Part shown: positions 10,382-32,000 of the stretch, in pieces
Layout: each line of letters begins with the position of its first letter
How positions within the stretch are numbered: position 1 is the stretch's first letter
From: Pseudomonadota bacterium
Lineage (GTDB): Bacteria; Pseudomonadota; Gammaproteobacteria; Burkholderiales; Thiobacillaceae
Assembly (NCBI GenBank): GCA_021847835.1
Contig: JAJZPR010000010.1
Location: 63,718 to 95,717, forward strand
Direction of reading: 5' to 3'
DNA: 32,000 nt
The notes under the pieces: generated by a model
The model's database searches: none
What the model was told of the DNA's origin: nothing
What the model saw: only the letters and a program-made list of their open reading frames with translations
Translations under genes and position numbers: made by a program

Positions 10382-10383
10382 TC

Positions 10384-13023: not shown

Positions 13024-13266
13024 ATGACCACAAAAACAACGGGCCGCGCTGGCTGGCACCAGGCGACCCAAGAAACTACACACAAGCAAGATATTACCGC
13101 ACCGACGCGCCAGATAGCCATGCTGTCAGCGCTCAAGCGGCGCATTTGGCTGTTGGGCTATGAGCTTGAAGAGGCCCGCCAGCTTCATGCTGCCCGTGGG
13201 CATTTCTGGAAAGAGGCCGGGGCGTGCATCGCTTTGGCGTTTCTGCGGTTTGGGAGGCTGGTATGA
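13024..13266 (+). CDS. Hypothetical small protein (80 aa)
   Basis: Its stop overlaps the primase start in an ATGA arrangement at 13263-13266, consistent with translational coupling. No family recognised. Confidence 0.5.
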   Translation: MTTKTTGRAGWHQATQETTHKQDITAPTRQIAMLSALKRRIWLLGYELEEARQLHAARGHFWKEAGACIALAFLRFGRLV

Positions 13267-16357: not shown

Positions 16358-17039
16358 CAGTACCCAAACAGATAAACGGGCGACCAAACCGAAGAAACCG
16401 GCGGCACCGAAAGCGGAGGCATTCCCGCGAAAAGCGATCCCCCTAAAATCAGGCCCGAGCGCCGACGAGAAAGGGCGGGTCTATGCGAGCCTCATAACCT
16501 CCCCCGAGCTTGCCGCGCATCGTGTCATAGGGATGATGCAGCCGAAGAACATTGCGGATGAAATCGACACCCCCACGATGCTGGAAACCCTGCGCGATCA
16601 AGCGGCGGCGGTACAGCGTGGCGACCTGTCCCATGCCGAAGCGATGCTGATAAATCAGGCGTCGGCGCTGCAAGCCCTGTTTGTGCGGCTTTCTGAAAGA
16701 GCCATGGAGCAAGCCCATATGCCTAACCTTGAAGGCTTCATGCGGATGGCACTGCGGGCGCAATCGCAATGCCGGGCGACTTTGGAAACGCTGGCAACGA
16801 TCAAGAATCCGCCGATTGTTTACGCGAAGCAGGCCAACTTTGCGGCGGGTCATCAGCAAGTCAACAACGGCACACCTGACCCTACGCGGGCGCGAGAAAT
16901 CGAAAACGAGCAATCCCAACTATCAGGGGGAAACCATGAGCTATTATCGGACGCCCGAGCATCGGGCGAAGCAAGCCGAACGAATCCGACGCTGGAAACC
17001 CTGGGAGAAATCGACCGGGCCGAAATCCGAAGAGGGTAA
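16347..17039 (+). CDS. Hypothetical protein (230 aa), Lys/Pro-rich N-terminus
   Basis: AGGAGG at 16334-16339 precedes ATG 16347, which overlaps the end of the upstream ORF. Composition is coding-like. Confidence 0.6.
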   Translation: MTGNSTQTDKRATKPKKPAAPKAEAFPRKAIPLKSGPSADEKGRVYASLITSPELAAHRVIGMMQPKNIADEIDTPTMLETLRDQAAAVQRGDLSHAEAMLINQASALQALFVRLSERAMEQAHMPNLEGFMRMALRAQSQCRATLETLATIKNPPIVYAKQANFAAGHQQVNNGTPDPTRAREIENEQSQLSGGNHELLSDARASGEASRTNPTLETLGEIDRAEIRRG

Positions 17040-17139
17040 GCGGCGATCCGCGATGCGCGGGTATAAGGGCGGAACCCGTAAGCTGTTGCGTGAACTGGCG
17101 CGGCTGTTACGGGAGCAAGCCGAAGCATTTAGGCGCTAA
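16936..17139 (+). CDS. Hypothetical small basic protein (67 aa, MSYYRTPEHRAKQAERIRRWKPWEKSTGPKSEEGK...)
   Basis: Internal start of the 152-aa track ORF, with AGGGGGA at 16925-16931 5 nt upstream. It overlaps the 3' end of the 230-aa ORF by 104 nt in another frame. Confidence 0.5.
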   Translation: MSYYRTPEHRAKQAERIRRWKPWEKSTGPKSEEGKRRSAMRGYKGGTRKLLRELARLLREQAEAFRR

Positions 17140-17145
17140 CGACGG

Positions 17146-17397
17146 TTAGCGGTTATTTTTCCAGGAAGCGCCATTAGCCCCGCAATTCCGCTCTAGGCCG
17201 TTCATCACCGCGCTGGCATCGTATTCGCCGCTTCTGAAGCCATCTACTGATGCTTGAACGTAGGCCCTGCAATTTATTGGTGCGCCGAAGTCCTCGCCAT
17301 ACTCGGCTTCCTTGTTGTCGTCAAAAGCGGAACCCCAATGGGCAACAGCAAAGATAATTCCCGCGACGATCCATCCAGCGCTGCAATCGCTTTCCAT
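17146..17397 (-). CDS. Small membrane-anchored or secreted Cys-containing protein (83 aa)
   Basis: The only minus-strand gene in the element. A strong SD (GGGAAAGAGGG) lies just upstream of the ATG. Hydrophobic N-terminus GWIVAGIIFAVAHW, with Cys at positions 5, 43 and 72. Confidence 0.55.
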   Translation of the reverse strand: MESDCSAGWIVAGIIFAVAHWGSAFDDNKEAEYGEDFGAPINCRAYVQASVDGFRSGEYDASAVMNGLERNCGANGASWKNNR

Positions 17398-17552
17398 TCC
17401 CTCTTTCCCTTCCGTTTTGTTTTTTTGTGAGCTTCCTGTCGGCTGTTTTTAGTTGCATCTTCAAGCTACGGCTTGGTGGGCGACGGTTTGAGGCGCAGCC
17501 GATATGGGGGACAATAACCGCTTTTCCTGGATTCGGTTTCGACTCGCCCGGC

Positions 17553-17592
17553 TTGGGTATCAATCGAAAAAGGGGGTATTCATGGGGGTATC
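17553..17592. repeat. Arm-type repeats at the right end of the element (TTGGGTATCAAT, GGGGGTATT, TGGGGGTATC)
   Basis: Same motif family as 10342-10381. Lies 50-90 bp upstream of the core at 17645. Confidence 0.55.
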
Positions 17593-17644
17593 TGCGAGCA
17601 ATGTCTGGTCAGCGATCCATGTAAATCAATAGGATGCAAGCATT

Positions 17645-17661
17645 ATGCTGCTAATGATCGA
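17645..17661 (+). repeat. Inter-copy core (intact attP-type junction)
   Basis: ATGCTGCTAATGATCGA, flanked on the left by the element's right end and on the right by its left end. Confidence 0.85.
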
Positions 17662-17780
17662 AAAGCATGATGCAAATCCGGCAACGTCCTTTCTGATCCG
17701 ATACCCCATATAAAACCTAGTGTTTACGCGGAATAGAAGGCCGTAAACAACCGGCATCATCCGTTGCCATCCGGGAAAAA

Positions 17781-17820
17781 TGGGGGTATCTTTGGGGGTA
17801 TCAATAGCCCGGTACCCCCA
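17781..17820. repeat. Arm-type repeats TGGGGGTA(T/C)C x3, copy 2
   Basis: Same as 10342-10381, shifted by 7,439. Confidence 0.6.
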
Positions 17821-17822
17821 TC

Positions 17823-19103
17823 ATGGCACTGACCGACGCGAGCATCCGCAACAAGAAACCCACAGAGAAGCAATACAAGGTTTCCGATGCTGGCGGGCTG
17901 TATCTGCTGGTAAAGCCGAGCGGCGCGAAGCTGTGGCGCTTGAAGTACCGCATAGATGGCAAGGAAAACGTTTTTGCCATCGGCGAGTATTGCGAAGCCC
18001 CGAGGGCTGAGACAGCCGCCGACGCCACCATCCGAAAAGCATCCGGGCGCTACACCTTGGCCGAAGCCCGGCAGGAACGCGAGCGCTGCAAAGGGCTAAT
18101 CAGGCACGGCATACACCCGGCGCATAACCGGAAGGCCGACGCGGCAAAACGATCCGCCGAAAACGCCAATACCTTCGAGGCCGTTGCGCGGGAATGGATA
18201 GCCAAGAAAACGCCCGGATGGACGGCGTACTACCTGCGGCAAGTCGAGCGATTCCTAGAGGCTGACGTTTTTCCCTATATCGGCAGCCTGCCGATTCGCA
18301 ACGTGACGGCGGCGCACCTGCTGGAAATCGTGCGGCGTATTGAGGGGCGCGGCGCTGCATCCGTGGCCTTGCTGGTGCGGCAATGGGCTTCGGCGATATT
18401 CCGCTATGCCGTGGCGACCTTGCGGGCGGATACCGATCCAGCATCGGCGTTGAAGGGCGCGATTCACCGGCCAAAGATTGAGCATCACAAGCCGCTATCC
18501 CGCGACCAAGTGGGCGACTTCGTGAAAGCGCTTGATTCCTATGGCGGGTATCGGACTACGGTAATCGCCCTGCGCCTGATGCTGCTGACCTTCGTTCGCA
18601 CCGTGGAGCTGCGGGGAGCGCACTGGACGGAAATCGACCTTGACCGGGCGGAATGGCGCATCCCCGCTGAGCGCATGAAGATGCGGGAGCCGCACATTGT
18701 CCCCTTGTCCCGGCAAGCCGTGGAACTGCTGACGGAACTGAAAACGCACACCGGCGGGCGTAGTTTTCTGTTCCCCAACTACCGCAACCCGCAAACCTGC
18801 ATGACGGCAACGACGTTGAATCGAGCGCTGGAACGCATGGGCTTCAACGGCAAAGACAGCATCGGCTTTTCGGCGCACGGATTCCGGGCAACGGCTTCAA
18901 CCATGCTGAACGAATTGAGTTTTCGTTCCGAAGTGATCGAGCGCCAGCTAGCCCATGCCGAACGAAACAAGGTGCGGGCCACCTACAACCAAGGCGAATA
19001 CATGGAAGAGCGGCGGGCCATGATGCAGCAATGGGCAAACCTGACCGACGAAATGGCGAAGAGCGAAAACAAGGTGACACCGATTAAGCAGGCGGCGGCA
19101 TAA
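17823..19103 (+). CDS. int: Tyrosine integrase, P4-like (copy 2)
   Basis: Translation identical to 10384-11664. Confidence 0.92.
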   Translation: MALTDASIRNKKPTEKQYKVSDAGGLYLLVKPSGAKLWRLKYRIDGKENVFAIGEYCEAPRAETAADATIRKASGRYTLAEARQERERCKGLIRHGIHPAHNRKADAAKRSAENANTFEAVAREWIAKKTPGWTAYYLRQVERFLEADVFPYIGSLPIRNVTAAHLLEIVRRIEGRGAASVALLVRQWASAIFRYAVATLRADTDPASALKGAIHRPKIEHHKPLSRDQVGDFVKALDSYGGYRTTVIALRLMLLTFVRTVELRGAHWTEIDLDRAEWRIPAERMKMREPHIVPLSRQAVELLTELKTHTGGRSFLFPNYRNPQTCMTATTLNRALERMGFNGKDSIGFSAHGFRATASTMLNELSFRSEVIERQLAHAERNKVRATYNQGEYMEERRAMMQQWANLTDEMAKSENKVTPIKQAAA

Positions 19104-19196
19104 AGGTTTGCCGCGCCTAGCCCGACGGGGCGAAAACCGGGACACCCTTGCCCGGCTGGCGTGGCACCCAATCAAGGGCGGCGCGAAAGGGGCGCG

Positions 19197-20156
19197 ATGA
19201 ATATGGCAAAGGCCTACTCCTGGGGTGATCTGTCCTCACAGGATTTAATCCAGCTTCTCGACTTGGTATCCGAGGAAAGGCTAAATGAGGTCTTTTATCC
19301 TGTATCAGAGACAAAGCCTGGTATGGGCCTATTCGGCGGCTGGAAGAATCATAGTTCGCATCCACTGCATCCCGACTATATCCAACCAGTCACTTGGGTT
19401 AACGAAGGTCGTGGCCTCCTCGAATTGATGGTGATTGATCATGTGGCCGAACGCGAAAGACAAGCTGAACGCGAGAGACAAACCGAACGCGAAAAACAAG
19501 CTGAACGCGAGTTACAGGCCGAGCGTGTCAGCAAGCATTGGCAAGTGATCAAGACGAACAATGCTTTTCAGCTACTGGAGTCCGATGCGAATTTCAAGAA
19601 GGCTCATGCTGTCTTTGAGCAGAAGCAGAGAGCTGCGGTAGATGGCGACCTATACGCACATCCGTTTGCAGAATTTCGTTTTATTGATTCGGTTTCTTCA
19701 ACTGCCGGATGGTTCCTTCTAACCGACGGCAAGGCTTTCAACTGGCCGATCCCTGACAAGAAGGCGATAGGCAAGGCGCGCGGCCATGCGTGGGCGATGC
19801 TGGATACCTTTGACAAGGATGGCGTCAAACTGCCCGGCTATCAGAAACAATTTAGCCTCAAAGCCTTGCTTTCTGAATTGGCCGATCAACTCGATGTGCA
19901 ATACAAATCAGGTCGCGCTGCATGGGGTGGAAAAAATCGGCCCTATCGGGTTTTAGTTCAGACCTTGGCTAATGCTTTGCGGCGGCATTTTGGTGAAGTG
20001 TCCCCTGAAATCGTGCTGTCGTTGGCTGCGATGGTTAGCTGCCCATTTACAGAAAAGACGATCAATAACCAGTTGAATGATTCAAAGGAAAAACATCGCC
20101 AAGCCTTAGCGAGAGCCTTATTAAGCCAAGGAAAAAATTCATCCAAATTCGGCTGA
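19197..20156 (+). CDS. Hypothetical 319-aa coiled-coil cargo protein (copy 2)
   Basis: Identical to 11758-12717. Confidence 0.65.
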   Translation: MNMAKAYSWGDLSSQDLIQLLDLVSEERLNEVFYPVSETKPGMGLFGGWKNHSSHPLHPDYIQPVTWVNEGRGLLELMVIDHVAERERQAERERQTEREKQAERELQAERVSKHWQVIKTNNAFQLLESDANFKKAHAVFEQKQRAAVDGDLYAHPFAEFRFIDSVSSTAGWFLLTDGKAFNWPIPDKKAIGKARGHAWAMLDTFDKDGVKLPGYQKQFSLKALLSELADQLDVQYKSGRAAWGGKNRPYRVLVQTLANALRRHFGEVSPEIVLSLAAMVSCPFTEKTINNQLNDSKEKHRQALARALLSQGKNSSKFG

Positions 20157-20235
20157 TTTTTTACTTATAGCTGGTTCAATACCAGAAGGATGATGCATCT
20201 ACCGGCCAGCAACGGCCATTTATGGATCATCCCGA

Positions 20236-20451
20236 ATGAAACAACTTCCCGAGACCGGTTTCCTGAGATTGCGCCAAATTATCGGCGACCCAAAAGCGGA
20301 ACCGCCGATCCCCGCGATCATCCCCGTAAAAAAATCCTGCTGGTGGGAGGGCTGCCGATCCGGTCGTTTCCCCAAGCCTGTGAAACTCGGGCCGCGTGTG
20401 ACGGCGTGGCCTGTTGAATCCATCCGCGCCCTAGTCGAGTCTTTGAAATAA
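20236..20451 (+). CDS. alpA: AlpA-family regulator / excisionase (copy 2)
   Basis: Identical to 12797-13012. Confidence 0.8.
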   Translation: MKQLPETGFLRLRQIIGDPKAEPPIPAIIPVKKSCWWEGCRSGRFPKPVKLGPRVTAWPVESIRALVESLK

Positions 20452-20462
20452 GGGGCGCGACC

Positions 20463-20705
20463 ATGACCACAAAAACAACGGGCCGCGCTGGCTGGCACCA
20501 GGCGACCCAAGAAACTACACACAAGCAAGATATTACCGCACCGACGCGCCAGATAGCCATGCTGTCAGCGCTCAAGCGGCGCATTTGGCTGTTGGGCTAT
20601 GAGCTTGAAGAGGCCCGCCAGCTTCATGCTGCCCGTGGGCATTTCTGGAAAGAGGCCGGGGCGTGCATCGCTTTGGCGTTTCTGCGGTTTGGGAGGCTGG
20701 TATGA
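20463..20705 (+). CDS. Hypothetical small protein, 80 aa (copy 2)
   Basis: Identical to 13024-13266. Confidence 0.5.
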   Translation: MTTKTTGRAGWHQATQETTHKQDITAPTRQIAMLSALKRRIWLLGYELEEARQLHAARGHFWKEAGACIALAFLRFGRLV

Positions 20706-23251
20706 GCAACCGCATCCGTGAAGCGCTGCAATTCATCCCCGCCGTTGACCGCGAAACCTGGGTGAAGATGGGTATGGCCGTTAAATCCGAGCTTGGGGAC
20801 GCTGGCTTTGGCTTGTGGGAAGGCTGGAGCCAGCAAGCCGACACCTTCAACGCCAAAGATGCGCGGGACGTGTGGAAGAGCATCCGCATCAATGGCAAGG
20901 TGACGGCGGGGACGCTGTTCCATGAGGCCAAGGCGAACGGCTGGCGCGACGATGGAACGCACCAGAGGCCGACGCCCGAAGAGCTTGCGGAGCGCCAACG
21001 CATCGAGAAATACGCGCGCGCGCGCGAGGAAGCCCGGACAGCTTCGGAACGTGTCGAGGCCGCGAAGAAGTCGGCGGCTGTCTGGAAGGCGGCAGCGGAA
21101 GCGAAACCCGATCATCCCTATCTTGTCCGCAAGCGCGTTTCGCCGGTAGCAACCCTGCGCGAGATTGACGCGGGCGCTGCGGCTGCGATCCTGGGCTATG
21201 CGCCGAAGTCGAGCGGCGAACCTTTGGCCGGGCGCTTGCTGGTGGCACCCGTCAAAGTCGGGGACGGGCTTTCGACGCTGGAACTGATCGACCCGGGCGG
21301 GCGCAAATCCGCTGTCTATGGCGGCGCGAAGGCGGGCGGATATTGGGCGGCGCAACCGCTACACGATGGCGACGGGCTGACCCTGCTTATCGGCGAAGGC
21401 GTGGCGACCGTGCTAACGGCGAAGGAATCCAGCGGACACCCGACAATCGCGGCGCTGTCGGCTGGCAATCTGCCAGCTGTGGCGAAGGCGATGCGCGAAC
21501 GCTACCCGTCGGCGGCGCTGGTGATTCTGGCCGATCTGGTGAAGGCGACCGGCGCACCCGATCCCCATGCAGTCGAGGCGGCGCAATCTGTCGGCGGAAA
21601 GCTGGCTATTCCTGACTTCGGTAATAAAGAACGGCCAAATAATGCGACCGACTTTAACGACCTGGCGGCGCTATGCGGGACGGAAGCCGTAGGACGCGCC
21701 ATAGCGAACGCAAGCGAACCGGATAAGGCTTTGCCTCAAACCGACCAAGAAAACGCAACAGCGCCAATCCTGACCGGGCAGGTTTGGCCGGAGTCGCAAC
21801 CGTTGACCGCGAAGGTGGCACCAGAGCCTTACCCAATCGACGCGCTACCCAAAACCATCCGGGCGGCGGTGGAAGAGGTGGCGGGCTTCGTCAAGGCACC
21901 TTTGCCAATGGTGGCATCGTCGGCACTGGCCGCGCTTTCGTTGGCAACCCAAGCTCATATCGACGTGAAGCGGGCGGAACGGCTGCAAGGGCCAGTCGGG
22001 TTATTCCTGCTGACCATCGCCGATTCGGGCGAGCGGAAATCAACCTGCGACGGCTTCTTTACGTCGGCAATCCGCCAGTATCAGGAAGAGCAAGCCGAGG
22101 CGATGAAACCGGCAATCAAGGAATATCAAGCCGAGATTGCCGCATGGGAAGCCGAGCGCGACGGGATATTGTCGGCGATAAAGTGCGCGGCTAAATCAGG
22201 CAAGGCGACCAACAATCTGCGGGTCGATCTTGCCGACCTTCAACGCGACAAGCCGGAAGCGCCGAGAGTGCCGAGGCTGCTGCTGGGCGACGAAACCCCT
22301 GAGAACCTTGCGTGGGGGCTTGCCAAGAATTGGCCGTCGGCGGGCGTGGTATCTGCCGAGGCCGGGATTGTTTTCGGGGCGCACGGCATGAGCAAGGATT
22401 CGGTTATGCGGAATCTTGGCCTGTTGAATGTCCTATGGGATGGCGGTTCGCATTCCGTCGGGCGGCGGACTTCGGAATCCTTCACAGTCAAAGGGGCGCG
22501 GCTGACCGTGGCTTTGCAGATTCAGGAAATGACCCTGCGGAGTTTCTTCGACCGATCCGGCGGGCTGGCGCGTGGGACGGGCTTCCTTGCCCGGTTTCTG
22601 GTGGCGTGGCCTAAATCGACGCAAGGCTTTCGCCCCTTCACCGAAGCCCCGCCGAACTGGCCGCACTTGGCCGCATTCCATCAACGCATCGCGGCGATTC
22701 TGGCGAACCCGGTTCCTATTGATGATGACGGGGCGCTATCCCCCGCATTGATGATGCTGGCACCGGAAGCAAAGGCGGCATGGGTAGCCTTCCACGATGC
22801 AATCGAGAGCGAACTAGCCAGCGGTGGCGAGCTATACGACGTGCGGGACGTGGCGAGTAAATCCGCCGACAACGCGGCACGGCTGGGGGCGTTGTTCCAG
22901 ATATTCGAGCACGGCATGGGCGGCGCTGTCGGGCTGGAATGTTTCGAGTCGGCAAGCCGGATTGCGGCATGGCACCTGAACGAATCACGGCGATTCTTTG
23001 GTGAGCTTGCGCTACCTGCTGAACTGGCGGACGCGGCGCGGCTGGATAGCTGGCTGGTCGATTATTGCCAGCGAGAGCAAAGGCATTCCGTTAGCAAGAA
23101 TCACGTCCGCCAGCATGGGCCATTGCGGGACGGGGCGCGACTTGATGCGGCGATCCGCGAGCTTGCCGAGCTTGAACGGCTGCGGCTGCTGAAGGAAGGA
23201 AAGCGTCTGACCATCCAACTCAATCCGGCATTAGCAGGGGTGACAGCATGA
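20702..23251 (+). CDS. Primase/helicase-type replication protein (copy 2)
   Basis: Identical to 13263-15812. Confidence 0.88.
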   Translation: MSNRIREALQFIPAVDRETWVKMGMAVKSELGDAGFGLWEGWSQQADTFNAKDARDVWKSIRINGKVTAGTLFHEAKANGWRDDGTHQRPTPEELAERQRIEKYARAREEARTASERVEAAKKSAAVWKAAAEAKPDHPYLVRKRVSPVATLREIDAGAAAAILGYAPKSSGEPLAGRLLVAPVKVGDGLSTLELIDPGGRKSAVYGGAKAGGYWAAQPLHDGDGLTLLIGEGVATVLTAKESSGHPTIAALSAGNLPAVAKAMRERYPSAALVILADLVKATGAPDPHAVEAAQSVGGKLAIPDFGNKERPNNATDFNDLAALCGTEAVGRAIANASEPDKALPQTDQENATAPILTGQVWPESQPLTAKVAPEPYPIDALPKTIRAAVEEVAGFVKAPLPMVASSALAALSLATQAHIDVKRAERLQGPVGLFLLTIADSGERKSTCDGFFTSAIRQYQEEQAEAMKPAIKEYQAEIAAWEAERDGILSAIKCAAKSGKATNNLRVDLADLQRDKPEAPRVPRLLLGDETPENLAWGLAKNWPSAGVVSAEAGIVFGAHGMSKDSVMRNLGLLNVLWDGGSHSVGRRTSESFTVKGARLTVALQIQEMTLRSFFDRSGGLARGTGFLARFLVAWPKSTQGFRPFTEAPPNWPHLAAFHQRIAAILANPVPIDDDGALSPALMMLAPEAKAAWVAFHDAIESELASGGELYDVRDVASKSADNAARLGALFQIFEHGMGGAVGLECFESASRIAAWHLNESRRFFGELALPAELADAARLDSWLVDYCQREQRHSVSKNHVRQHGPLRDGARLDAAIRELAELERLRLLKEGKRLTIQLNPALAGVTA

Positions 23252-23796
23252 GCCTGCTATCGGCGCTGATCCAAAAACGTGAAACCCGGAAGGCTGCTAC
23301 TGCTATTCCTGCTATTTCTGCTACTCAACCGAAGGAAGGGGCGGCAACAGTAGCAAGAATAGCAACAGTAGCAGTAGCAAACCCCACGGATGCAAAAACG
23401 ACCGATGCTGTGACTTCGTGGGGCTGGCTGTTGCACTTCGCCGACCGTGAGCCGCTGGAAGTCTATTGCAACCCGGACGCGACCCATGCCGAGATACTGG
23501 AACGCTATCCCGATGCACTGGCAGCGGAGCCGATACCGGAGCGCACCAGGCGAACGCCGACCGAAGCCGAGGCGGCGGAACTGCGGGCGCTGGTGCAAAC
23601 CATTGGCGAGGCTGAGCAATGGACGGCTGACGAAATCGAATGGGCAACGGCTGGGGCGCTGGCCGATCCTGACGGGGCGCTGATCTGCTTTCAAGATATA
23701 GCGAGAGGCTTCAATGCAGCCGTTGAGAACAACGATAGAACAGTGAAGAGAGTCCTGAAAACAGGCATCAATCAGGAGGCAAATAATGACTGGTAA
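23248..23796 (+). CDS. Hypothetical protein, 182 aa (copy 2)
   Basis: Identical to 15809-16357. Confidence 0.6.
   Translation: MSLLSALIQKRETRKAATAIPAISATQPKEGAATVARIATVAVANPTDAKTTDAVTSWGWLLHFADREPLEVYCNPDATHAEILERYPDALAAEPIPERTRRTPTEAEAAELRALVQTIGEAEQWTADEIEWATAGALADPDGALICFQDIARGFNAAVENNDRTVKRVLKTGINQEANNDW
23293..23379. repeat. Iteron-like inverted array (copy 2)
   Basis: Same as 15854-15940, shifted by 7,439. Confidence 0.6.
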
Positions 23797-24478
23797 CAGT
23801 ACCCAAACAGATAAACGGGCGACCAAACCGAAGAAACCGGCGGCACCGAAAGCGGAGGCATTCCCGCGAAAAGCGATCCCCCTAAAATCAGGCCCGAGCG
23901 CCGACGAGAAAGGGCGGGTCTATGCGAGCCTCATAACCTCCCCCGAGCTTGCCGCGCATCGTGTCATAGGGATGATGCAGCCGAAGAACATTGCGGATGA
24001 AATCGACACCCCCACGATGCTGGAAACCCTGCGCGATCAAGCGGCGGCGGTACAGCGTGGCGACCTGTCCCATGCCGAAGCGATGCTGATAAATCAGGCG
24101 TCGGCGCTGCAAGCCCTGTTTGTGCGGCTTTCTGAAAGAGCCATGGAGCAAGCCCATATGCCTAACCTTGAAGGCTTCATGCGGATGGCACTGCGGGCGC
24201 AATCGCAATGCCGGGCGACTTTGGAAACGCTGGCAACGATCAAGAATCCGCCGATTGTTTACGCGAAGCAGGCCAACTTTGCGGCGGGTCATCAGCAAGT
24301 CAACAACGGCACACCTGACCCTACGCGGGCGCGAGAAATCGAAAACGAGCAATCCCAACTATCAGGGGGAAACCATGAGCTATTATCGGACGCCCGAGCA
24401 TCGGGCGAAGCAAGCCGAACGAATCCGACGCTGGAAACCCTGGGAGAAATCGACCGGGCCGAAATCCGAAGAGGGTAA
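23786..24478 (+). CDS. Hypothetical protein, 230 aa (copy 2)
   Basis: Identical to 16347-17039. Confidence 0.6.
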   Translation: MTGNSTQTDKRATKPKKPAAPKAEAFPRKAIPLKSGPSADEKGRVYASLITSPELAAHRVIGMMQPKNIADEIDTPTMLETLRDQAAAVQRGDLSHAEAMLINQASALQALFVRLSERAMEQAHMPNLEGFMRMALRAQSQCRATLETLATIKNPPIVYAKQANFAAGHQQVNNGTPDPTRAREIENEQSQLSGGNHELLSDARASGEASRTNPTLETLGEIDRAEIRRG

Positions 24479-24578
24479 GCGGCGATCCGCGATGCGCGGG
24501 TATAAGGGCGGAACCCGTAAGCTGTTGCGTGAACTGGCGCGGCTGTTACGGGAGCAAGCCGAAGCATTTAGGCGCTAA
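24375..24578 (+). CDS. Hypothetical small basic protein, 67 aa (copy 2)
   Basis: Identical to 16936-17139. Confidence 0.5.
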   Translation: MSYYRTPEHRAKQAERIRRWKPWEKSTGPKSEEGKRRSAMRGYKGGTRKLLRELARLLREQAEAFRR

Positions 24579-24584
24579 CGACGG

Positions 24585-24836
24585 TTAGCGGTTATTTTTC
24601 CAGGAAGCGCCATTAGCCCCGCAATTCCGCTCTAGGCCGTTCATCACCGCGCTGGCATCGTATTCGCCGCTTCTGAAGCCATCTACTGATGCTTGAACGT
24701 AGGCCCTGCAATTTATTGGTGCGCCGAAGTCCTCGCCATACTCGGCTTCCTTGTTGTCGTCAAAAGCGGAACCCCAATGGGCAACAGCAAAGATAATTCC
24801 CGCGACGATCCATCCAGCGCTGCAATCGCTTTCCAT
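24585..24836 (-). CDS. Small membrane-anchored or secreted protein, 83 aa (copy 2)
   Basis: Identical to 17146-17397. Confidence 0.55.
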   Translation of the reverse strand: MESDCSAGWIVAGIIFAVAHWGSAFDDNKEAEYGEDFGAPINCRAYVQASVDGFRSGEYDASAVMNGLERNCGANGASWKNNR

Positions 24837-24991
24837 TCCCTCTTTCCCTTCCGTTTTGTTTTTTTGTGAGCTTCCTGTCGGCTGTTTTTAGTTGCATCTT
24901 CAAGCTACGGCTTGGTGGGCGACGGTTTGAGGCGCAGCCGATATGGGGGACAATAACCGCTTTTCCTGGATTCGGTTTCGACTCGCCCGGC

Positions 24992-25031
24992 TTGGGTATC
25001 AATCGAAAAAGGGGGTATTCATGGGGGTATC
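24992..25031. repeat. Right-end arm-type repeats (copy 2)
   Basis: Same as 17553-17592, shifted by 7,439. Confidence 0.55.
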
Positions 25032-25083
25032 TGCGAGCAATGTCTGGTCAGCGATCCATGTAAATCAATAGGATGCAAGCATT

Positions 25084-25100
25084 ATGCTGCTAATGATCGA
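25084..25100 (+). repeat. attR core = the functional start of trpG
   Basis: ATGCTGCTAATGATCGA, followed by native trpG sequence (CAACTACGAC...). Confidence 0.85.
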
Positions 25101-25653
25101 CAACTACGACAGCTTCACCTACAACCTCGTGCAGTATTTCGGCGAGCTGGGCGAAGACGTGAAGGTGATGCGCAACGACGAGATCGACCTTGCCGGCGTG
25201 GCGGCCTTGAAGCCCGATCACATCGTCATCTCGCCGGGGCCCTGCACGCCCACCGAGGCGGGCATTTCCGTGCCCTTGATCCGCGAATTCGCCGGCAAGG
25301 TGCCCATCCTCGGCGTGTGCCTCGGCCACCAGAGCATCGGCCAGGCCTTCGGCGGCAGGATCGTGCACGCGAAAGCGCTCATGCACGGCAAGACCTCCAT
25401 GATCCGCCACAAGGACGTGGGCGTGTTCCGCGGCCTGCCCAATCCTTTCCGCGCCACGCGCTACCACTCGCTGGTGATCGAGCGCGAGTCGCTGCCCGAT
25501 TGCCTGGAAATCACCGCCTGGACCGACGACGGCGAGATCATGGGCGTGCGCCACAAAACGCTGGCGGTGGAAGGCGTGCAGTTCCACCCCGAGTCCATCC
25601 TCACCGAACACGGCCACGCCATGCTGGCCAACTTCCTCAAGGGGCATGCTTGA
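25084..25653 (+). CDS. trpG: Anthranilate synthase component II (glutamine amidotransferase)
   Basis: [26 protein letters not shown] (catalytic Cys) and GVQFHPES. The first 17 nt and all upstream DNA are element-derived. Confidence 0.92.
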
Positions 25654-26669
25654 TGCAGTACAAGGACATTCTCAGCCGCTTGCTCGACCGCCATGATCTG
25701 CCGCGCGAAACCATGCTGTCCGCCATGCATGCGCTCATGGGGGGGGAATGGACGCCTGCCCAGATAGCGGGATTCCTGATCGCGTTGCGCATGAAGGAAG
25801 AAAGCGTTACTGAAATCGCGGCGGGTGCCCAGGTGATGCGCGAACTGTCGCTCAAGGTGCCCCTGGCTGGCGTCGAGCATCTGGTCGATACCTGCGGCAC
25901 CGGCGGCGATGGCGCGCATACCTTCAATATCTCGACTGCAGCCGCTTTCGTGGCGGCAGCCTGCGGCGCGCATGTTGCCAAGCATGGCGGGCGTTCTGTG
26001 TCATCCACATCAGGCAGCGCCGACGTGCTGGAAGCGCTCGGCGTCAACGTCAACCTGACGCCGGAGCAGGTCGCCCGGGCAGTCAGGGAAATCGGCGTCG
26101 GCTTCATGTTCGCGCCCAACTACCATGCTGCCATGAAGCATGCCGCGCCGGTGCGGCGCGAACTGGGCGTGCGCACCTTGTTCAACATGCTGGGGCCGCT
26201 GACCAACCCCGCTGCCGCACCCAACCAGGTGCTGGGCGTGTTCAGCAAAAACCTGACCGGCACGCTGGCCGAAGTGCTGAAGGAACTGGGCAGCCAGCAT
26301 GTGCTGGTCGTCAATGCCGAGGAAGGGCTGGACGAAATCAGCCTGGCCAGCCCCACCTACGTTGCCGAATTGAAGGAAGGGCGGGTATTCGAATACCTCC
26401 TCGAACCCGGGGCCTTCGGCCTGCCACAAGTCGCCGCCACCGAACTGGTGGTCAACGGCAAGGATGAAGCCGTCGCCATGCTCAAGGCCGCGCTGGAAAA
26501 CCGCCATCCCGGCGCCTCTGCCATCGTCACGCTCAACGCTGGCGCAGCCGTGTATGTCTCCGGACGGGCGGACAGCCTGGCCGACGGCGTCGCCCAGGCC
26601 CGGGCCGCCATCGAGTCCGGCGAGGCGAGCGCCAAGTTGGCCGCCTACACGGCCTTTACGCAAGCATGA
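25653..26669 (+). CDS. trpD: Anthranilate phosphoribosyltransferase
   Basis: Its ATG overlaps the trpG stop (TGATG at 25651-25655). Motifs: [36 protein letters not shown]. The start was chosen inside the 450-aa track ORF. Confidence 0.92.
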
Positions 26670-27454
26670 GCGACATTCTCACCAAAATCCTGGCCACCAA
26701 GCGCGAAGAAATCGCCGCCGGACTGAAACAGGTTTCGCTTGCCGAAATGCAGGCGCGCGCCGCCGTGCAGGAGCCGCCGCGCGATTTCGTCGGCGCCATC
26801 CGCGCCAAAATCGCCGCCGGCAAGCCGGCGGTCATCGCCGAGATCAAGAAGGCCAGCCCCAGCAGGGGCGTGCTGCGCGCGGACTTCCATCCGGCCGCGA
26901 TCGCCGCCAGCTATGAAGCGGGCGGCGCGGCCTGTCTGTCGGTGCTGACCGACCGGCAGTATTTCCAGGGCAGCCCCGAGTATCTCGAAGAGGCGCGCGC
27001 CGCCTGTTCGCTGCCGGTGCTGCGCAAGGATTTCATCATCGACGCCTACCAGGTGTACGAGGCGCGCGCCATGGGGGCGGACTGCATCCTGCTCATCGTG
27101 GCGGCGCTGAAGCTGGACGAGATGCAGGCGCTCGAAGCGCTGGCGCACGAACTCGGCATGGCCGTGCTGGTGGAGTCGCACGACGCCGAAGAACTCGACG
27201 CCGCCCTGCAGCTGAAAACCCCGCTGCAAGGCATCAACAACCGCAACCTGCGCACCTTCGAGGTCAGCCTCGACACGACGCTGGGACTTTTGTCCAAAAT
27301 CGGCCGCGACCGCGTCGTCATCACCGAATCGGGCATCCTGGCCCCGGCCGACGTCGCCCGCATGCGCGCCCACGACGTCCATGCCTTCCTGGTCGGCGAA
27401 GCCTTCATGCGTGCAGACAACCCTGGCGCGGAGCTTGCCCGGCTGTTCGCCTGA
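26666..27454 (+). CDS. trpC: Indole-3-glycerol phosphate synthase
   Basis: [53 protein letters not shown]. Its ATG overlaps the trpD stop. Confidence 0.92.
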
Positions 27455-27482
27455 GGCGCGTCCGCTGCCTGCCGCGGCCTGA

Positions 27483-29033
27483 TCAGGTGCCGCCGCCGTG
27501 GAATTCCACGCCGGGCTGGCGTTCCGGCAGTTCTTCCACCAGCAGTTCGCGCCTCGCGCGTTCCAGGGCGTCCACGCCCGCTTCGCTCAAATAGGACTTG
27601 GCATCGGCTATCGCGGCCGACAGCAGGCCCGCCGCGAGGGACGCAGGCTCTCTTCCCACGGCACGGGCCAGTGCGCGCAGCTCGAAATACGCATCGCGCC
27701 CGAGCTGGGCTTCCACGGGTTTCGCGCCGGGCGCTGCGGCCGGGGCATGCATCGCCCCTTCCAGTTTTTCGGCCAGCGCCTGGCTCATCACGCCCGCGAC
27801 CCTGGATGCGGCGGAAGGCGCCGGGCCGGCGGGCTTGAGGCGAACCTTGTTCATGAAGTATTTCTCGAAATCCACCTTGGCCAGATGCACCCAGCGTCCC
27901 TGGCGCATCCAGTTGATGTCGCGCAAAGGCACCTGCGGTCCCGACAGGTAGGCGGCGCCGGTTTCGCCCATGTCGGACAGCCATCTGGCCCGCTGGGGCG
28001 TGCTGCTCGACAGCGGCTCGCCGCGCATGGAAGCGAGAATGTTGCCCACGGCGGTTTCGGCTTCCTGCTGGATGGAATAGACCGAATCCGGCGCGCCGAC
28101 GTTGAGCGGCGTCCTGTCCGCCGGCCTGTGCGCGATGCACACGCCGGCGGCGAATATGTTCGGGCTGGCGGGGGTTCTCAGGAATTCGTCCACCACCACC
28201 AGGCCGCGCTCGTTGACCAGGCCGGGCGTGGCGCGTATGCCGGACACGCCGCGGAAAGCGGGCCAGTATACCGAGTAGGCGAAGGGCAGCGCGTGGGACT
28301 GCCTGTCCTTTCCCGCTTCATCGAGCTCGACGATGTGTATGGCGCCGGCTTCCACGCGCTCGGTGCGGGCGTTGCAGATGATCCGGATATGGGTATCGGC
28401 GAGCACGGCTTTGATGGCTTCGCGGCTGTCGTTGTCGATGCCCAGGCCGAGGTGGCCGGGCCAGGGCTCGGGCGTGACCAGGGTGATGGGCACGCGCTCG
28501 CGAATGTTGCGGCGCTTGAGGTCGGCATCCGCCAGCAGGGCGAATTCATACACCGGGCCCAGGATGCTGGCCCCCTGCACGGCGCCGACCACGATGGGGC
28601 CGGGATGCCTGGCAAATTCCCGGTAGGCAGCGTGCGCGCGTTCGGCCTGCTCGATGTGCAGCACCGAATGGGTGTGCTCGGCCAGGCCGGGAATTTCGTC
28701 GAACGCGCCTTCCATGCCGGTGGCGATCAGCAGGTAGTCGTAGGACAGCGTGTTGCCGTTTTCCAGTTCGATCCGGTTCAGGTCAGGGCGAACATGCCCC
28801 ACCTTGCCGTGCACGAAGCGGATGCCGCGCGCCTCCAGATAGGGCGCGAGGGGAAAGGCGATGTCGCTGCGCTCGCGCCAGCCCATGGCGATCCACGGGT
28901 TGGAGGGCACGAAGTGGAAGTAGTCCTTGTCCGACACCACGGACACCTCGTCACGCGAGCCGAGCCTGGATCTGAGCGCATAGGCGGCGGGGATGCCCGC
29001 GATGCCTGCGCCGAGTACGACGACGTGTGCCAT
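27483..29033 (-). CDS. SQR-like flavoprotein (pyridine nucleotide-disulfide oxidoreductase fold) lacking two conserved SQR cysteines, with a ~100-aa C-terminal extension
   Basis: 516 aa, colinear with the sqr product at 8797-10065 (MAHVVVLGAGIAG, FVPSNPW, YLLIATG, GVCIAH, WVHLAKVDFEKYF). However, HSICQ becomes HSVLH and GASCYGP becomes GASILGP, and an Ala-rich tail follows the SQR core. Confidence 0.8.
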   Translation of the reverse strand: MAHVVVLGAGIAGIPAAYALRSRLGSRDEVSVVSDKDYFHFVPSNPWIAMGWRERSDIAFPLAPYLEARGIRFVHGKVGHVRPDLNRIELENGNTLSYDYLLIATGMEGAFDEIPGLAEHTHSVLHIEQAERAHAAYREFARHPGPIVVGAVQGASILGPVYEFALLADADLKRRNIRERVPITLVTPEPWPGHLGLGIDNDSREAIKAVLADTHIRIICNARTERVEAGAIHIVELDEAGKDRQSHALPFAYSVYWPAFRGVSGIRATPGLVNERGLVVVDEFLRTPASPNIFAAGVCIAHRPADRTPLNVGAPDSVYSIQQEAETAVGNILASMRGEPLSSSTPQRARWLSDMGETGAAYLSGPQVPLRDINWMRQGRWVHLAKVDFEKYFMNKVRLKPAGPAPSAASRVAGVMSQALAEKLEGAMHAPAAAPGAKPVEAQLGRDAYFELRALARAVGREPASLAAGLLSAAIADAKSYLSEAGVDALERARRELLVEELPERQPGVEFHGGGT

Positions 29034-29045
29034 GTCAGCCTCCTA

Positions 29046-29735
29046 TCATCCGCGCGGCCGCACCAGCTGCCATGCGCGCGCCAGGTAAGTCGTTGCGGCG
29101 AACCCGCTCCACACGTGCACCAGGCGGGTGAAGGGAAAGACCAGGAAGATGGTCATGCCCAGGAAAAGGTGGGCCTGGAAGATCCAGCCCACGCCCTCCA
29201 TCAGCTCGGCCGCGCCGCCGCGGAAGGTGACGATGCGCTGCGCCCATTCCGCCAGCCGCACCATCATGCCGCCGTCCAGGTGCTGGGCCGACAGCGGGAT
29301 GGTGGCGAGCCCCAGCAGCAGTTGCAGCCACAGCAGCAGCACGATCACGATGTCGCCGGCCCTGGTGACGGCGCGGATGCGCGGCTCGGTGAGACGCCGG
29401 TGCAGCAGCAGGCTGAGGCCGATGAAGGCCGCCAGGCCGGCGATGCCGCCCGTGACCATGGCGAGGATCTGCTTGGCGCCGGAACTGATGAAGGGCTCGT
29501 ACACGAAATGCGGCGTCAGCATGCCGACGAAGTGGCCGAAGAACAGGAACAGCACGCCGGCGTGGAACAGGTTGCTGCCCAGGCGCAGTTGCCCGCGTTT
29601 CAGCAATTGCGACGAGTCGCTTTTCCACGTGTACTGCTCGCGGTCGAAACGGATCAGGCTGCCGAGCAGGAAGACCGTCAACGCGATGTAGGGGTAGATC
29701 CCGAACAGGAAAAACTGCGTGTAGGACATTTTCAA
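29046..29735 (-). CDS. narI: Respiratory nitrate reductase gamma subunit (cytochrome b)
   Basis: 229 aa, multi-TM. FFLFGIYPYIALTVFLLGSLIRFDREQYTWKS.SSQLL and the conserved His positions are typical of NarI. Lies downstream of narJ. Confidence 0.88.
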   Translation of the reverse strand: MKMSYTQFFLFGIYPYIALTVFLLGSLIRFDREQYTWKSDSSQLLKRGQLRLGSNLFHAGVLFLFFGHFVGMLTPHFVYEPFISSGAKQILAMVTGGIAGLAAFIGLSLLLHRRLTEPRIRAVTRAGDIVIVLLLWLQLLLGLATIPLSAQHLDGGMMVRLAEWAQRIVTFRGGAAELMEGVGWIFQAHLFLGMTIFLVFPFTRLVHVWSGFAATTYLARAWQLVRPRG

Positions 29736-29753
29736 GCCCTCCTGAACTGAGTG

Positions 29754-30410
29754 TCAGACCGCCGCCCGCCGGCGCGAGGGCGGCATTTGCACCACTGCGA
29801 TTTGCGGAGCGGGTTTCAGCAGCGGCTCGACGCCTTCGGCCGAAGGGCCGAACATTTCCATGGCCTCGTCCATGTCGCGCACCGGCGGCGCGGCGAGTTC
29901 CTGCGCCGCCACCGGCGACAGCGCTTCCAGCGTCTGGAAGGCCGCGGCGTAGGGGCTGCCGTTGGCGGCGAGTTTTTTGCCGATGAGGGCGAGCACGTGC
30001 ACGGCATCGCCCAGCAGTTCGAGGGCCTCGCCGTCCGGCAGGAGCGACAGGAATTCGAGGAACAGCGGTACATAGTCGGGCAGTTCGGAGGCGGAGGCGT
30101 CGAAGCCGTGTTTCCAGTATTCCTCGAGCAGGTCGATCATGGCGGGGCCGCGGTCGCGCGATTCGCCGTGGATGTGCTCGAAGAGATGCAGCGAGTGCGA
30201 AGGGTTGCGGTCGAAGGTGGCGACGTAGTTTTCCTGCAGTTCGATGAGCTTGCCGTCGCTCAGCAGCTCGAACAGTGGCGCCATGCGCCTGGCGGCGTTG
30301 CCGTTGAGGGCGGATTCCTCCACCAGCGCGGCATGCATCTCGGGCAGGGCCGCGAGCCGTTCCGGCTCGGGATACATCAGCAACAGGGACAGGACTTTGA
30401 AGGTTTTCAT
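29754..30410 (-). CDS. narJ: Nitrate reductase molybdenum-cofactor assembly chaperone
   Basis: 218 aa. MKTFKVLSLLLMYPE...LQENYVATFDRNPSHSLHLFEHIHGESRDRG is the NarJ/TorD-family signature. Located between narH and narI. Confidence 0.85.
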   Translation of the reverse strand: MKTFKVLSLLLMYPEPERLAALPEMHAALVEESALNGNAARRMAPLFELLSDGKLIELQENYVATFDRNPSHSLHLFEHIHGESRDRGPAMIDLLEEYWKHGFDASASELPDYVPLFLEFLSLLPDGEALELLGDAVHVLALIGKKLAANGSPYAAAFQTLEALSPVAAQELAAPPVRDMDEAMEMFGPSAEGVEPLLKPAPQIAVVQMPPSRRRAAV

Positions 30411-30427
30411 TCTTTAAACCTCACTTC

Positions 30428-30538
30428 CAGCCACAGAGGGCACAGAGAAATCCTCACTTCGAGGGGGCGCGGGCATCAACAGCGGGGAAGCGCCGGTATG
30501 CAAGCACTTGTTTTTTCCCTCTGTGTTCTCTGTGGCTG
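30428..30538. repeat. Inverted repeat in the narH-narJ spacer
   Basis: CAGCCACAGAG (30428-30438) pairs with CTCTGTGGCTG (30528-30538), an 11-bp perfect stem that extends imperfectly through repeated CACAGAG/CTCTGTG motifs. Confidence 0.7.
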
Positions 30539-30569
30539 ACGGTCTTTTGGTGTTCATGCTGTTCTCTCC

Positions 30570-32000
30570 TTAGCCGGTTTTCTTCCTGGCGTGCAGCTGC
30601 GAAAGATCGACCGGCACGGCATTCTTGCGGTTGCCGAACAGGCTGGGCTTGGAAACGCCGTCGGAGCAGCCGTTGCCGAAGCTGAAGCCGCAGCTCGATT
30701 TTTCCTCGAAGGTGTTGATCGCCTCCTCGCGGTGGGCGGTGGGGACGACGAAGCGGTCCTCGTAGTTGGCGATGGCGAGATAACGGTACATCTCGTCGGC
30801 CTGCGCGGAGGTGAGCCCCACCTGGTCGAGCGCGGCGGTGTTGGGCTTGCCGTCCACCGACTTGCCGCGCATGTAGGCGCGCATCGCCAGCAGGCGGTCG
30901 AGCGCGGAGACCACCGGCTGCTCCTTGCCGCCGGTCAGGAGGTTGGCGAGATAGGTGATCGGGATGCGCAAGCTGCCGGTGTCGGGGATGATGCCGTTCA
31001 TGCCCATCCTGCCGGACTCGGCGGCGGCCTGGATCGGCGACAGCGGCGGCACGTACCACACCATGGGCAGGGTGCGATACTCGGGATGCAGCGGGAAGGC
31101 GATCTTCCAATCGATCGCCATCTTGTACACCGGCGACTTCACCGCGGCGTCGAGCCAGGCTTCGGGGATGCCTTCGGCACGCGCGGCATTGATGACTTCG
31201 GGGTCGCAGGGGTCGAGGAAAATCTTCAGCTGCGCTTCGTAAAGTTCCTTCTCGTCACTGACGCTGGCGGCTTCCTCGATGCGGTCGGCGTCATACAGGA
31301 TCACGCCCAGGTAGCGGATGCGGCCCACGCAGGATTCCGAACACACCGTGGGCTGGCCCGCCTCGATGCGCGGATAGCAGAAGATGCACTTCTCGGCCTT
31401 GCCGGTCTTCCAGTTGTAGTAGATCTTCTTGTACGGGCAGCCGGAGACGCACATCCTCCAGCCGCGGCACTTGTCCTGGTCGACCAGCACGATGCCGTCT
31501 TCCTCGCGCTTGTAGATCGAGCCCGAGGGACAGGAGGCCACGCAGGTCGGATTGAGGCAGTGCTCGCACAGCCTCGGCAGGTACATCAGGAAAGTGTTTT
31601 CGAAGGTGGCATGCATTTCCTTCTGCACGTTGTCGAAATTCTTGTCGCGCCCGCGCGAGGAGAATTCGCCGCCGAGGTCGTCCTCCCAGTTGGGACCCCA
31701 GTCGATCTTGTCCATCTTCCTGCCAGTGATGGCGGAAATGGGGCGTGCGGTGGGCGGCGTCTGCGACAGCGGAGCCTTCTGCAGGTGCTGGTAGTCGTAG
31801 GTGAAAGGTTCGTAGTAGTCGTCGATCTCGGGCAGATTGGGGTTGCCGAAGATGTTGGCGAGTATCCTGGTGCGGCTGCCCTGGCGCGGCTCGATCCTGC
31901 CGTCATCCTTGCGCTTCCAGCCGCCGTTCCAGACGTCCTGGTTTTCCCACTGCTTGGGATAGCCGATGCCCGGCTTGGATTCGACGTTGTTGAACCACGC
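30570..32000 (-). CDS. narH: Respiratory nitrate reductase beta subunit (Fe-S), 5' end outside the window
   Basis: YLPRLCEHCLNPTCVASCPSGSIYKREEDGIVLVDQDKCRGWRMCVSGCPYKKIYYNW, CIFCYPRIEAGQPTVCSESCVGRIRYLG. The same frame stays open upstream of the track start (31715) to the window edge (AWFNNVESKPG...), so the CDS is truncated by the window. Confidence 0.92.
   Translation of the reverse strand, partial: AWFNNVESKPGIGYPKQWENQDVWNGGWKRKDDGRIEPRQGSRTRILANIFGNPNLPEIDDYYEPFTYDYQHLQKAPLSQTPPTARPISAITGRKMDKIDWGPNWEDDLGGEFSSRGRDKNFDNVQKEMHATFENTFLMYLPRLCEHCLNPTCVASCPSGSIYKREEDGIVLVDQDKCRGWRMCVSGCPYKKIYYNWKTGKAEKCIFCYPRIEAGQPTVCSESCVGRIRYLGVILYDADRIEEAASVSDEKELYEAQLKIFLDPCDPEVINAARAEGIPEAWLDAAVKSPVYKMAIDWKIAFPLHPEYRTLPMVWYVPPLSPIQAAAESGRMGMNGIIPDTGSLRIPITYLANLLTGGKEQPVVSALDRLLAMRAYMRGKSVDGKPNTAALDQVGLTSAQADEMYRYLAIANYEDRFVVPTAHREEAINTFEEKSSCGFSFGNGCSDGVSKPSLFGNRKNAVPVDLSQLHARKKTG

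Follow-up and report, generated by a model that had tools for sequence, protein, structure and literature searches.

The first 17 bp of trpG, the gene for anthranilate/aminodeoxychorismate synthase component II, appear to be the integration target of a 7.4-kb P4-type element that is present twice in the 32,000-nucleotide stretch of DNA analysed here (contig JAJZPR010000010.1, positions 63,718 to 95,717; the whole stretch is referred to as the window). We put at roughly 0.87 the probability of this explanation as a whole, in which the element inserts site-specifically into those 17 bp and rebuilds the start of the gene. Its demonstrated parts are the junctions, the empty site, the crossover interval, an attachment-site (att) architecture of the P4 type, a target shared across the integrase clade and the conservation of a Shine–Dalgarno (SD) sequence at the element's end.

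The 17-bp core ATGCTGCT[C/A]ATGATCGA was found by a scan of the window at 10206, 17645 and 25084, in each case on the forward strand; no further copy with up to two mismatches exists elsewhere in the window, 0 being expected by chance, and the window holds no tRNA gene that could have served as the target. The first core (10206–10222) reads ATGCTGCTCATGATCGA and the other two (17645–17661 and 25084–25100) read ATGCTGCTAATGATCGA. The three cores bound two units of 7,439 bp, and comparison of the window with itself at this offset (10215–17661 against 17654–25100) gives zero mismatches, establishing two identical head-to-tail units; the sole difference inside the repeat is at 10214, where the left copy of the core has C and both others have A.

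The third core is the beginning of trpG. The 189-aa open reading frame (ORF) has its first start codon at 25084, matches Pfam GATase (4e-64) and passes the NCBIfam model TIGR00566 (trpG_papA) with residue 1 on model position 1, and an in-frame TAG at 25069–25071, five codons upstream, excludes an earlier start. A related contig shows the same site in its empty form. An exact-sequence look-up of the window TrpG returned two contigs, of which one (L081, GCA_040960215.1) runs from the upstream flavoprotein gene through the native leader and ATGCTGCTCATGATCGA into trpG. It aligns to window 7385–10222 at 100%, joined directly to 25084–31653 at 99.7%, and lacks exactly the two units; the same flavoprotein gene adjoins trpG there. 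Its junction, ...caggagatgcagccgccATGCTGCTCATGATCGAcaactacgac, is the reconstructed attB, with CTC as the native codon 3. The four junctions (attB, B-O-B′; attL, B-O-P′; inter-copy, P-O-P′; attR, P-O-B′) form the textbook pattern. The second contig (L082), from another sample than L081, is an occupied site, and public data thus hold the same element population with both occupied and empty sites.

Comparison of the empty site with attL and attR shows an attB overlapping the ORF at its 5′ end and an element end that re-creates an intact gene. The right arm gives trpG its start codon, codons 1–3, an AGGAT ribosome-binding box and all upstream DNA: AGGA stands at 25070–25073, 10 nt before the ATG, and the native leader instead carries AGGAGA at 10190–10195. 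The TrpG protein of the window is identical to that of the empty-site contig, the CTC-to-CTA change being synonymous; the start codon lies within the identity segment, which is why the protein is unchanged. Earlier inspection of the window's sequence by itself (the original prediction) had taken the core to be codons 1–6 of trpG, with the native CTC and AGGAGA kept at attL, a synonymous CTA in the element version, and an element-derived start codon and AGGA. The empty site and the start at 25084, which does not lie downstream of 25100, bear out each of these points, and the empty site also has the 17-bp core at the trpG 5′ end that was to be looked for in relatives without the element. A further claim, that the element's right end resembles the native leader beyond the core, did not hold: the likeness as a trace of att identity comes down to GATGCA plus one C (7/12 positions), the leaders are unrelated in hosts that carry near-identical elements (L001, L003), and the resemblance is coincidental.

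The translation signals at the element's end recur among its relatives. Across ten right arms from elements with integrases 71–95% identical to that of the window, an AGGAT-type box is kept at −14 to −10 from the trpG ATG and the neighbouring bases vary, which, with the AGGA 10 nt before the ATG in the window, points to translation signals that are supplied by the element at a fixed spacing. Also conserved among these arms are GGGTAT at exactly −71 and −59 (10/10) and at −90 (8/10), as well as the block GCCGATATgGGgGACAAT near −140. A further motif at −21 (up to one mismatch to WATCAANNNNTTR) occurs in 6 of the 10 element attR leaders and in 14 of 17 unique provirus-side leaders, and at that position in none of 39 native-side sequences, to the left of attL; it is a predicted site for integration host factor (IHF).

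Strand exchange is in ATGATCGA, core positions 10–17 (trpG codons 4–6). Both junctions are available for ten elements; with one exception taken up below, differences between their attL and attR are confined to core positions 1, 6, 7 and 9 and to position 18 and beyond, and because the differences fall outside positions 10–17 the exchange lies within them. These ten pairs fit the earlier placement of the exchange, to the right of core position 9. On the P′ side the first seven bases of the core recur in inverted orientation, forming the dyad ATGCTGC-N13-GCAGCAT centred at position 14; perfect in five loci (L004, L011, L016, L019 and L021) and 5/7 in the window, its half-sites are plausible core-type binding sites for the integrase.

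The integrase and its att site follow the plan of phage P4. The protein has the three-domain architecture of P4-type (Arm-DNA-bind_3/DUF4102) integrases (Arm-DNA-bind_3, PF13356, 4e-21; Phage_int_M, PF22022, 9e-32; Phage_integrase, PF00589, 2e-21), with a match to the PHROG_1 integrase family as well. BLASTP aligns 96% of its length to P4 Int at 40% identity (E 7e-97), and the catalytic R/K/HxxR/H/Y residues align (window/P4: TFVRTVELR/TFVRSSELR, MKMREPHIVPLS/MKMKEEHIVPLS, HGFRATA/HGFRTMA, LAHAERN/LSHSERN and RATY/RAAY). Its gene starts 178 bp to the right of the attL core, against 171 bp in P4, and arm-type repeats flank the short core on both sides: GGGGGTAT occurs eight times in the window (0.45 expected) and is confined to the arms. 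To the left of the core, P4 has two tandem 12-bp repeats 54–77 bp away, and the element two GGGGGTAT (a 24-bp tandem unit, likewise 54–77 bp away) plus a third GGGTAT at −90; before int, both have two tandem repeats and one inverted repeat at the int start. The repeats read (A/T)GGGGGCAT in P4 and (A/T)GGGGGTAT in the element, similar G5-rich sequences. The −10 of Pint lies inside the repeats in P4, and in the element a promoter-like TTGCCA-N17-TATCTT (10325–10353) has a −10 that overlaps the first P′-arm repeat. Assignment to the P4 family, as first proposed, is upheld by this sequence identity with aligned motifs and by the P4-like attP. Among deposited phages, none has an integrase more than 60% identical to that of the window, the best being Yersinia phages YeP4-6 at 49.5%. 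Coordinates are collected in Table 1.

Table 1. Features of the window, in order of position (positions with a minus sign are relative to the trpG ATG).
Feature	Position	Strand	Details and basis
Upstream host gene, Pyr_redox_2 flavoprotein, weakly SQR-like	8611–10065	+	Pfam; NCBIfam SQR_III below cut-off
attL core (B-O-P′)	10206–10222	+	Native CTC at codon 3 kept; native leader and SD AGGAGA (10190–10195) precede
Putative remnant 22-codon ORF (MLLMIEKHDANPATSFLIRYPI, then stop)	10206–10274	+	Would use the displaced native trpG SD and ATG and run into the P′ arm
P′ arm	10223–10383	+	Tandem GGGGGTAT at 10343–10350 and 10355–10362 (12-bp period); inverted copy at 10371–10379
int copy 1, P4-type tyrosine integrase	10384–11664	+	Pfam domains; BLASTP against P4 Int
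int-alpA RNA motif, copy 1	11671–11739	+	Rfam RF02996, 76.5 bits (gathering score, 35.8)
ORF without assigned function, 331 aa maximum (319 aa called in L129)	11722–12717	+	
AlpA-like small DNA-binding protein	12797–13012	+	Pfam PF05930, borderline
Primase-helicase (PriCT_2, Toprim_3, DUF3987)	13224–15812	+	Pfam; PHROG DNA primase and DNA helicase families
Two ORFs without family match, 182 aa and 230 aa	15809–17039	+	
83-aa ORF without assigned function, convergent with the rightward genes	17146–17397	−	
Inter-copy junction core (P-O-P′, attP-equivalent)	17645–17661	+	Element version CTA; unitig ends in L129 and L082 imply it independently
Second, identical element copy	17662–25083	+	int 17823–19103; int-alpA RNA 19110–19178; primase-helicase 20663–23251; reverse ORF 24585–24836
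Terminator-like hairpin and T-run between convergent last genes	24573–24600	+	Consensus scan; hairpin 24573–24590
Candidate outward promoter in a conserved P-arm block	24927–24954	+	TTGAGG-N16-GACAAT; weighted scan, alignment
P-arm arm-type repeats	24994–25030	+	GGGTAT at −90, −71 and −59; GGGGGTAT at 25011 and 25023
IHF-consensus-like motif at −21	25063–25075	+	AATCAATAGGATG (consensus WATCAANNNNTTR, 1 mismatch); overlaps the SD AGGA
attR core (P-O-B′), trpG codons 1–6	25084–25100	+	Crossover segment ATGATCGA (25093–25100)
trpG (anthranilate/aminodeoxychorismate synthase component II)	25084–25653	+	Intact, 189-aa ORF
trpD and trpC, downstream in the same operon as trpG	25650–27454	+	Pfam; L081 gene calls

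The same target is used throughout the integrase clade. An integrase scan of one genome per species gave 80 loci. Among those first scored with integrases at least 67% identical to that of the window, 38 of 39 carry the trpG-start core 174–179 bp upstream of int; with an alphaproteobacterial metagenome-assembled genome (MAG; L055), which has the variant core ATGCTCATCCTCATCGA at 179 bp, the total is 39 of 40. In all nine core-bearing loci whose element fits the 10-kb flank, trpG and trpD follow 5.5–8.7 kb downstream, so that the survey proposed with the original prediction now places relatives of this integrase next to trpG. The target in the window and in these 39 of 40 loci is trpG, not dusA or prfC, where DusA-associated and SXT integrases act. 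The hosts include Thiobacillus, Methyloversatilis, Tepidiphilus, Azoarcus, Thauera, Accumulibacter, Pseudomonas, Rhodanobacter, Dyella, Xanthomonas and Pseudoxanthomonas. On the same strand and within 10 kb upstream of attL, trpE is encoded in 24 loci; in eight it is directly adjacent, its stop codon 0–13 bp from the core, and there the element splits a trpE-trpGDC cluster.

At greater distances the picture diversifies. The genome scan found no core beside integrases of 38–48% identity, and IMG/VR lineages at 53% (L134–L136) and at 45–48% (L094, L101, L119 and L122) have core, arm repeats and int in the same order, L134–L136 immediately behind the stop codon of trpE and one group with the adapted core ATGTTGGA. 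These arrangements suggest several specificity variants at one target. Core variants named for the integrase lineage are ATGATCGA, ATGTTGGA and ATCCTCATCGA, and two loci (L095 and L113) have different arm-like repeats (CCGGATA). A locus with an integrase of 50% identity and trpG 5.5 kb downstream (L039) was not counted, there being no repeat common to the region upstream of int and the trpG start. In L122 (IMG/VR 2713896847_000009), whose core is at 2381, the inverted arm repeat in front of int has grown to about six tandem CATACCCG units, about 190–230 bp past the core, an expansion that may reflect slippage in an arm-type site.

We propose the following mechanism. The integrase would recombine the element into attB, the first 17 bp of trpG, probably recognizing the dyad ATGCTGC-N13-GCAGCAT and exchanging strands within ATGATCGA. 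With int on the P′ side, the P arm adjoins trpG after integration and supplies the start codon, codons 1–3, the AGGAT box 10 nt upstream and all DNA further upstream. An outward P-arm promoter, for which 24927–24954 is the candidate, would transcribe trpGDC in the integrated state, and in a circle or tandem array its transcripts would cross attP and enter int; the AlpA-like protein may act as the excision factor.

Several observations weigh against parts of this explanation. One of the ten attL/attR pairs, that of L020, differs at core position 15, inside the exchange interval, and in one locus with an integrase of 75% identity (L032, 9800–10010) attL consists only of GATCGA and the P′ arm inside an unrelated ORF, an apparent secondary-site insertion and the one departure among the 40 loci. 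The AlpA match is borderline (21.2 bits; cut-off, 21), and the four cargo ORFs have no PHROG, NCBIfam or PADLOC match and no Pfam match above the curated cut-off. The promoter is a candidate only: a consensus scan of 24400–25200 found no sigma-70 promoter, the candidate scores 8.8 in the window (8.8–10.5 across arms) against a shuffled best with a median of 8.6 and a 95th percentile of 12.2, and recurrence of the promoter-like site could be mere homology of a recombination-related block. That the repeat is no att site at all, being a transposon target-site duplication or a by-product of homologous recombination or duplication with an incidental match to trpG, has in its favour that short direct repeats flank many kinds of insertion. 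The data already refute it: the 17-bp identity comes with an allele switch at position 9 and an exact empty site, a P4-type integrase with P4-like arm repeats begins 178 bp from the core, the same core stands at the same distance in the related loci across many genera, and no transposase was found.

Another rival concerns the supply of a promoter. In the weighted scan the best sigma-70-like site falls at the same aligned position (−157/−130) in 7 of the 10 right arms, with TTTATA-N17-GAAAAT and a TG extension there in L020 and L040. If trpGDC were instead driven by read-through, from the rightward genes of the element or from a host promoter upstream of attL across about 15 kb of element, tryptophan synthesis would depend on expression of element genes; the empty consensus scan of the right arm and a candidate that is individually no better than shuffled sequence both favour such a reading. 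We nevertheless consider it unlikely, given that a terminator-like hairpin, which argues against simple read-through from the element operon, and a convergent reverse-strand ORF (24585–24836) intervene before trpG, that divergent elements share a conserved non-coding block with the promoter-like site, and that promoters are indeed supplied by the analogues studied in experiments, at dusA and prfC. In some bacteria TrpG and PabA can replace each other, which lends some room to a different outcome, in which integration inactivates or down-regulates trpG, the host is an auxotroph or uses PabA, and the rebuilt start has no function. This is very improbable: the ORF is intact with a synonymous change only, and the AGGAT box, kept at fixed spacing between variable bases, and the persistence of elements here in many free-living genera, also where trpE is split from trpG, argue for selection that keeps trpG expressed.

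A last alternative concerns the copy number alone. Tandem copies could be an assembly artefact, with one genomic copy and an inter-copy junction derived from excised circles or from mis-joining of repeats; the copies share 100% identity over 7,447 bp, as expected of repeats that were collapsed or duplicated, and a circular attP has the same sequence as a tandem junction. An independent k=141 short-read assembly (ERZ27237050) bears on this. One of its contigs (L129, k141_491890) equals window 10215–17661 exactly and ends in an 8-bp terminal repeat, ATGATCGA, and the occupied-site contig from the same sample (L082) starts at 24960, 141 nt before the first trpG-specific base. Unitigs that end exactly at 10215, 17661 and 24960 are expected only with reads spanning the junction, and the P-O-P′ molecule is therefore real in that sample; these ends fit a tandem array and a free circle alike. 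Heterologous tandem arrays occupy the same site in four other loci (L012, L022, L040 and L085), and together these points make the artefact a minority possibility, if a less distant one than read-through. Integrase contigs of about 7.1–7.7 kb were also considered as excised circles and rejected: L083 and L084 are linear, integrated elements without terminal overlap, and in L129 the overlap is no more than the 8 bp that a unitig should have.

Beyond int, the site-specific element resembles small satellites in its gene content. An int-alpA RNA follows directly after the int stop codon in both copies (11671–11739 and 19110–19178), and because it overlaps the longest possible start of the 331-aa ORF, that ORF probably starts later (319 aa). 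The same ORF contains imperfect 18-bp repeats (12008–12086 and 19447–19525) that encode an ERERQAE-type charged repeat. The AlpA-like protein is a candidate excisionase or regulator, and int, alpA and a primase/replication module within a small island make up the satellite-type set, the AlpA match being the borderline member. Genes for packaging or for a helper capsid (sid/psu/delta, ppi, small terminase or capsid) have no match among the four cargo ORFs, which is weak evidence, and no ORF of the element matches relaxase, oriT or type IV secretion functions (Pfam, PHROG and NCBIfam). The gene content is consistent with a satellite-like replicative island, and the element may be a satellite, an integrative and mobilizable element (IME) or of another type. 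Cargo differs widely between loci: that of the window element is a primase-helicase, whereas two islands with integrases of the same clade have defence or resistance cargo, namely a YagK/YfjJ protein with type I restriction-modification in Pseudomonas (L016, 11300–19000) and a large methyltransferase together with a CDF transporter and an RND pump in Rhodanobacter (L024, 11900–20900). Five predicted proviruses of 20–54 kb carry the same P-arm repeats.

The chromosomal surroundings gave a few further observations. The original prediction had named the gene upstream of attL as sqr; the product is weakly SQR-like, its SQR_III score of 113.8 bits against a cut-off of 525 failing to support the name, and 3′ of the gene a hairpin (GGCGCC-CGCA-GGCGCC) with a T-run is visible by eye at 10090–10111. 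Downstream of trpC, on the reverse strand (27483–31715; L081 5221–9391), lie a second Pyr_redox_2 gene and genes for respiratory nitrate reductase (narI, narJ and narH-like). Integrases 95% identical to that of the window occur in Thiobacillus MAGs, and these together with the nar genes suggest a Thiobacillus-like denitrifier as host. About 14 tandem 18-bp units (GGTTCCGGCGGCGGCATG-like) at 128–405 on the forward strand, Gly/Ser-rich if translated, lie far from the element and are unrelated to it.

Among known systems, P4 itself has the same three integrase domains, catalytic motifs and attP plan (core about 171–178 bp upstream of int), and no P4 capsid-size or helper-control gene was found among the cargo (PHROG and NCBIfam). 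The site used by P4 is a tRNA-Leu gene, at its 3′ end, whereas the present target is the 5′ end of a protein-coding gene, so that here the P arm must carry translation and transcription signals. Gram-negative phage-inducible chromosomal islands (PICIs) and P4-like satellites are alike in small size and in the order int, int-alpA RNA, alpA-like gene and primase-helicase; the element differs in having no recognizable capsid-redirecting, packaging or helper-interference genes in PHROG, NCBIfam and PADLOC. In elements of the ICEclc type an outward promoter at one end, Pcirc, drives int only after circularization; the candidate at 24927–24954 would fit such a role, with the difference that the promoter of the trpG element would also have to express the host trpGDC.

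Closest in strategy are elements that target the 5′ ends of conserved housekeeping genes. For dusA-specific elements such as IMEVchUSA3, integration at the 5′ end with a restored frame and a new promoter has been shown experimentally, the N-terminus being altered and expression dropping (PMC8409611). SXT at prfC likewise integrates at the 5′ end and supplies frame and promoter with an altered N-terminus (PMC8409611). Restoration of the frame by the element is common to dusA elements and to the trpG element, but the latter leaves the protein unchanged, and its promoter is a candidate only. SXT/R391 elements, of the integrative and conjugative kind (ICEs), are large and conjugative and alter the N-terminus, compared with 7.4 kb, no detected conjugation genes and a preserved TrpG here. 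The original prediction was not aware of trpG as a described target of a P4-family integrase; this agrees with our full-text searches, which found no paper naming it as an att site, and with integrase-target surveys, in which neither trpG nor pabA was found; large island databases may list such islands.

The target coincides with a known hotspot. Pseudomonas R/F tailocin (pyocin, syringacin) loci have the same chromosomal address, between trpE and trpG; this interval houses the R/F pyocins of P. aeruginosa and an independently derived tailocin of P. syringae, for a reason called unclear (PMC4542187, PMC13624779). In some strains integrase and inovirus-Gp2 genes lie between the pyocin endolysin and trpG (PMC13624779), an insertion that resembles the cargo of L016. 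A pattern scan identified 38 IMG/VR proviruses that end at the trpG start, several of them tail-only (sheath, baseplate, fibres, endolysin/spanin), and the leaders of the tail-only clusters carry the element-type motif AATCAAnAGG(T/A)T at −21. Tail-only modules ending at the trpG start with an element-type leader were seen in L085 (1–9840; lambda-like J and fibres), L114 (sheath, fibre and tape measure) and L098 (baseplate, fibres and endolysin-spanin). In L085 the core follows and then an island with a 75%-identical integrase; the tail module of that locus is only about 75% identical to P. aeruginosa phages. Integrase and arm repeats at −71/−59 are absent from the tail clusters, and no fossil attL core was found within 600 bp after trpE in five proviruses (L130–L133 and L137). 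The link to the tailocin hotspot is a lead, plausible and unproven. If tailocins are of fossil-phage origin, a degenerate ATGCTGCTGATGATCGA and a P′-like GCAGCAT after trpE would be the expected trace.

A wider reading, possible but on balance doubtful, would make the trpG 5′ end a widely used, tRNA-like att site for a broad P4-type lineage, combining a tailocin origin with the promoter swap. Integrases of 45–53% identity would share the target, and satellite-like, defence and metal-resistance islands as well as full prophages would use it; the ancestral phages of tailocins would have integrated between trpE and trpG, with later loss of int and the arm sites. The P′ arm and int would be read from the host trpE/trpG signals, which could couple the element to tryptophan regulation.

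The data support a P4-type integrase lineage dedicated to the trpG 5′ end, of a kind already known from dusA and prfC, and trpG joins the short list of protein-coding genes whose 5′ end is a conserved att site. In many bacteria the target lies at the trpE-trpG junction, which places these elements inside an amino-acid biosynthesis cluster whose expression signals they have to replace, a natural example of control over an essential-pathway operon passing to a mobile element. The 17-bp target is conserved across Beta- and Gammaproteobacteria, with a variant in L055, and the integrase clade could serve targeted insertion. The finding also offers a testable explanation for the Pseudomonas trpE-trpG tailocin hotspot, which has been described as unexplained (PMC4542187).

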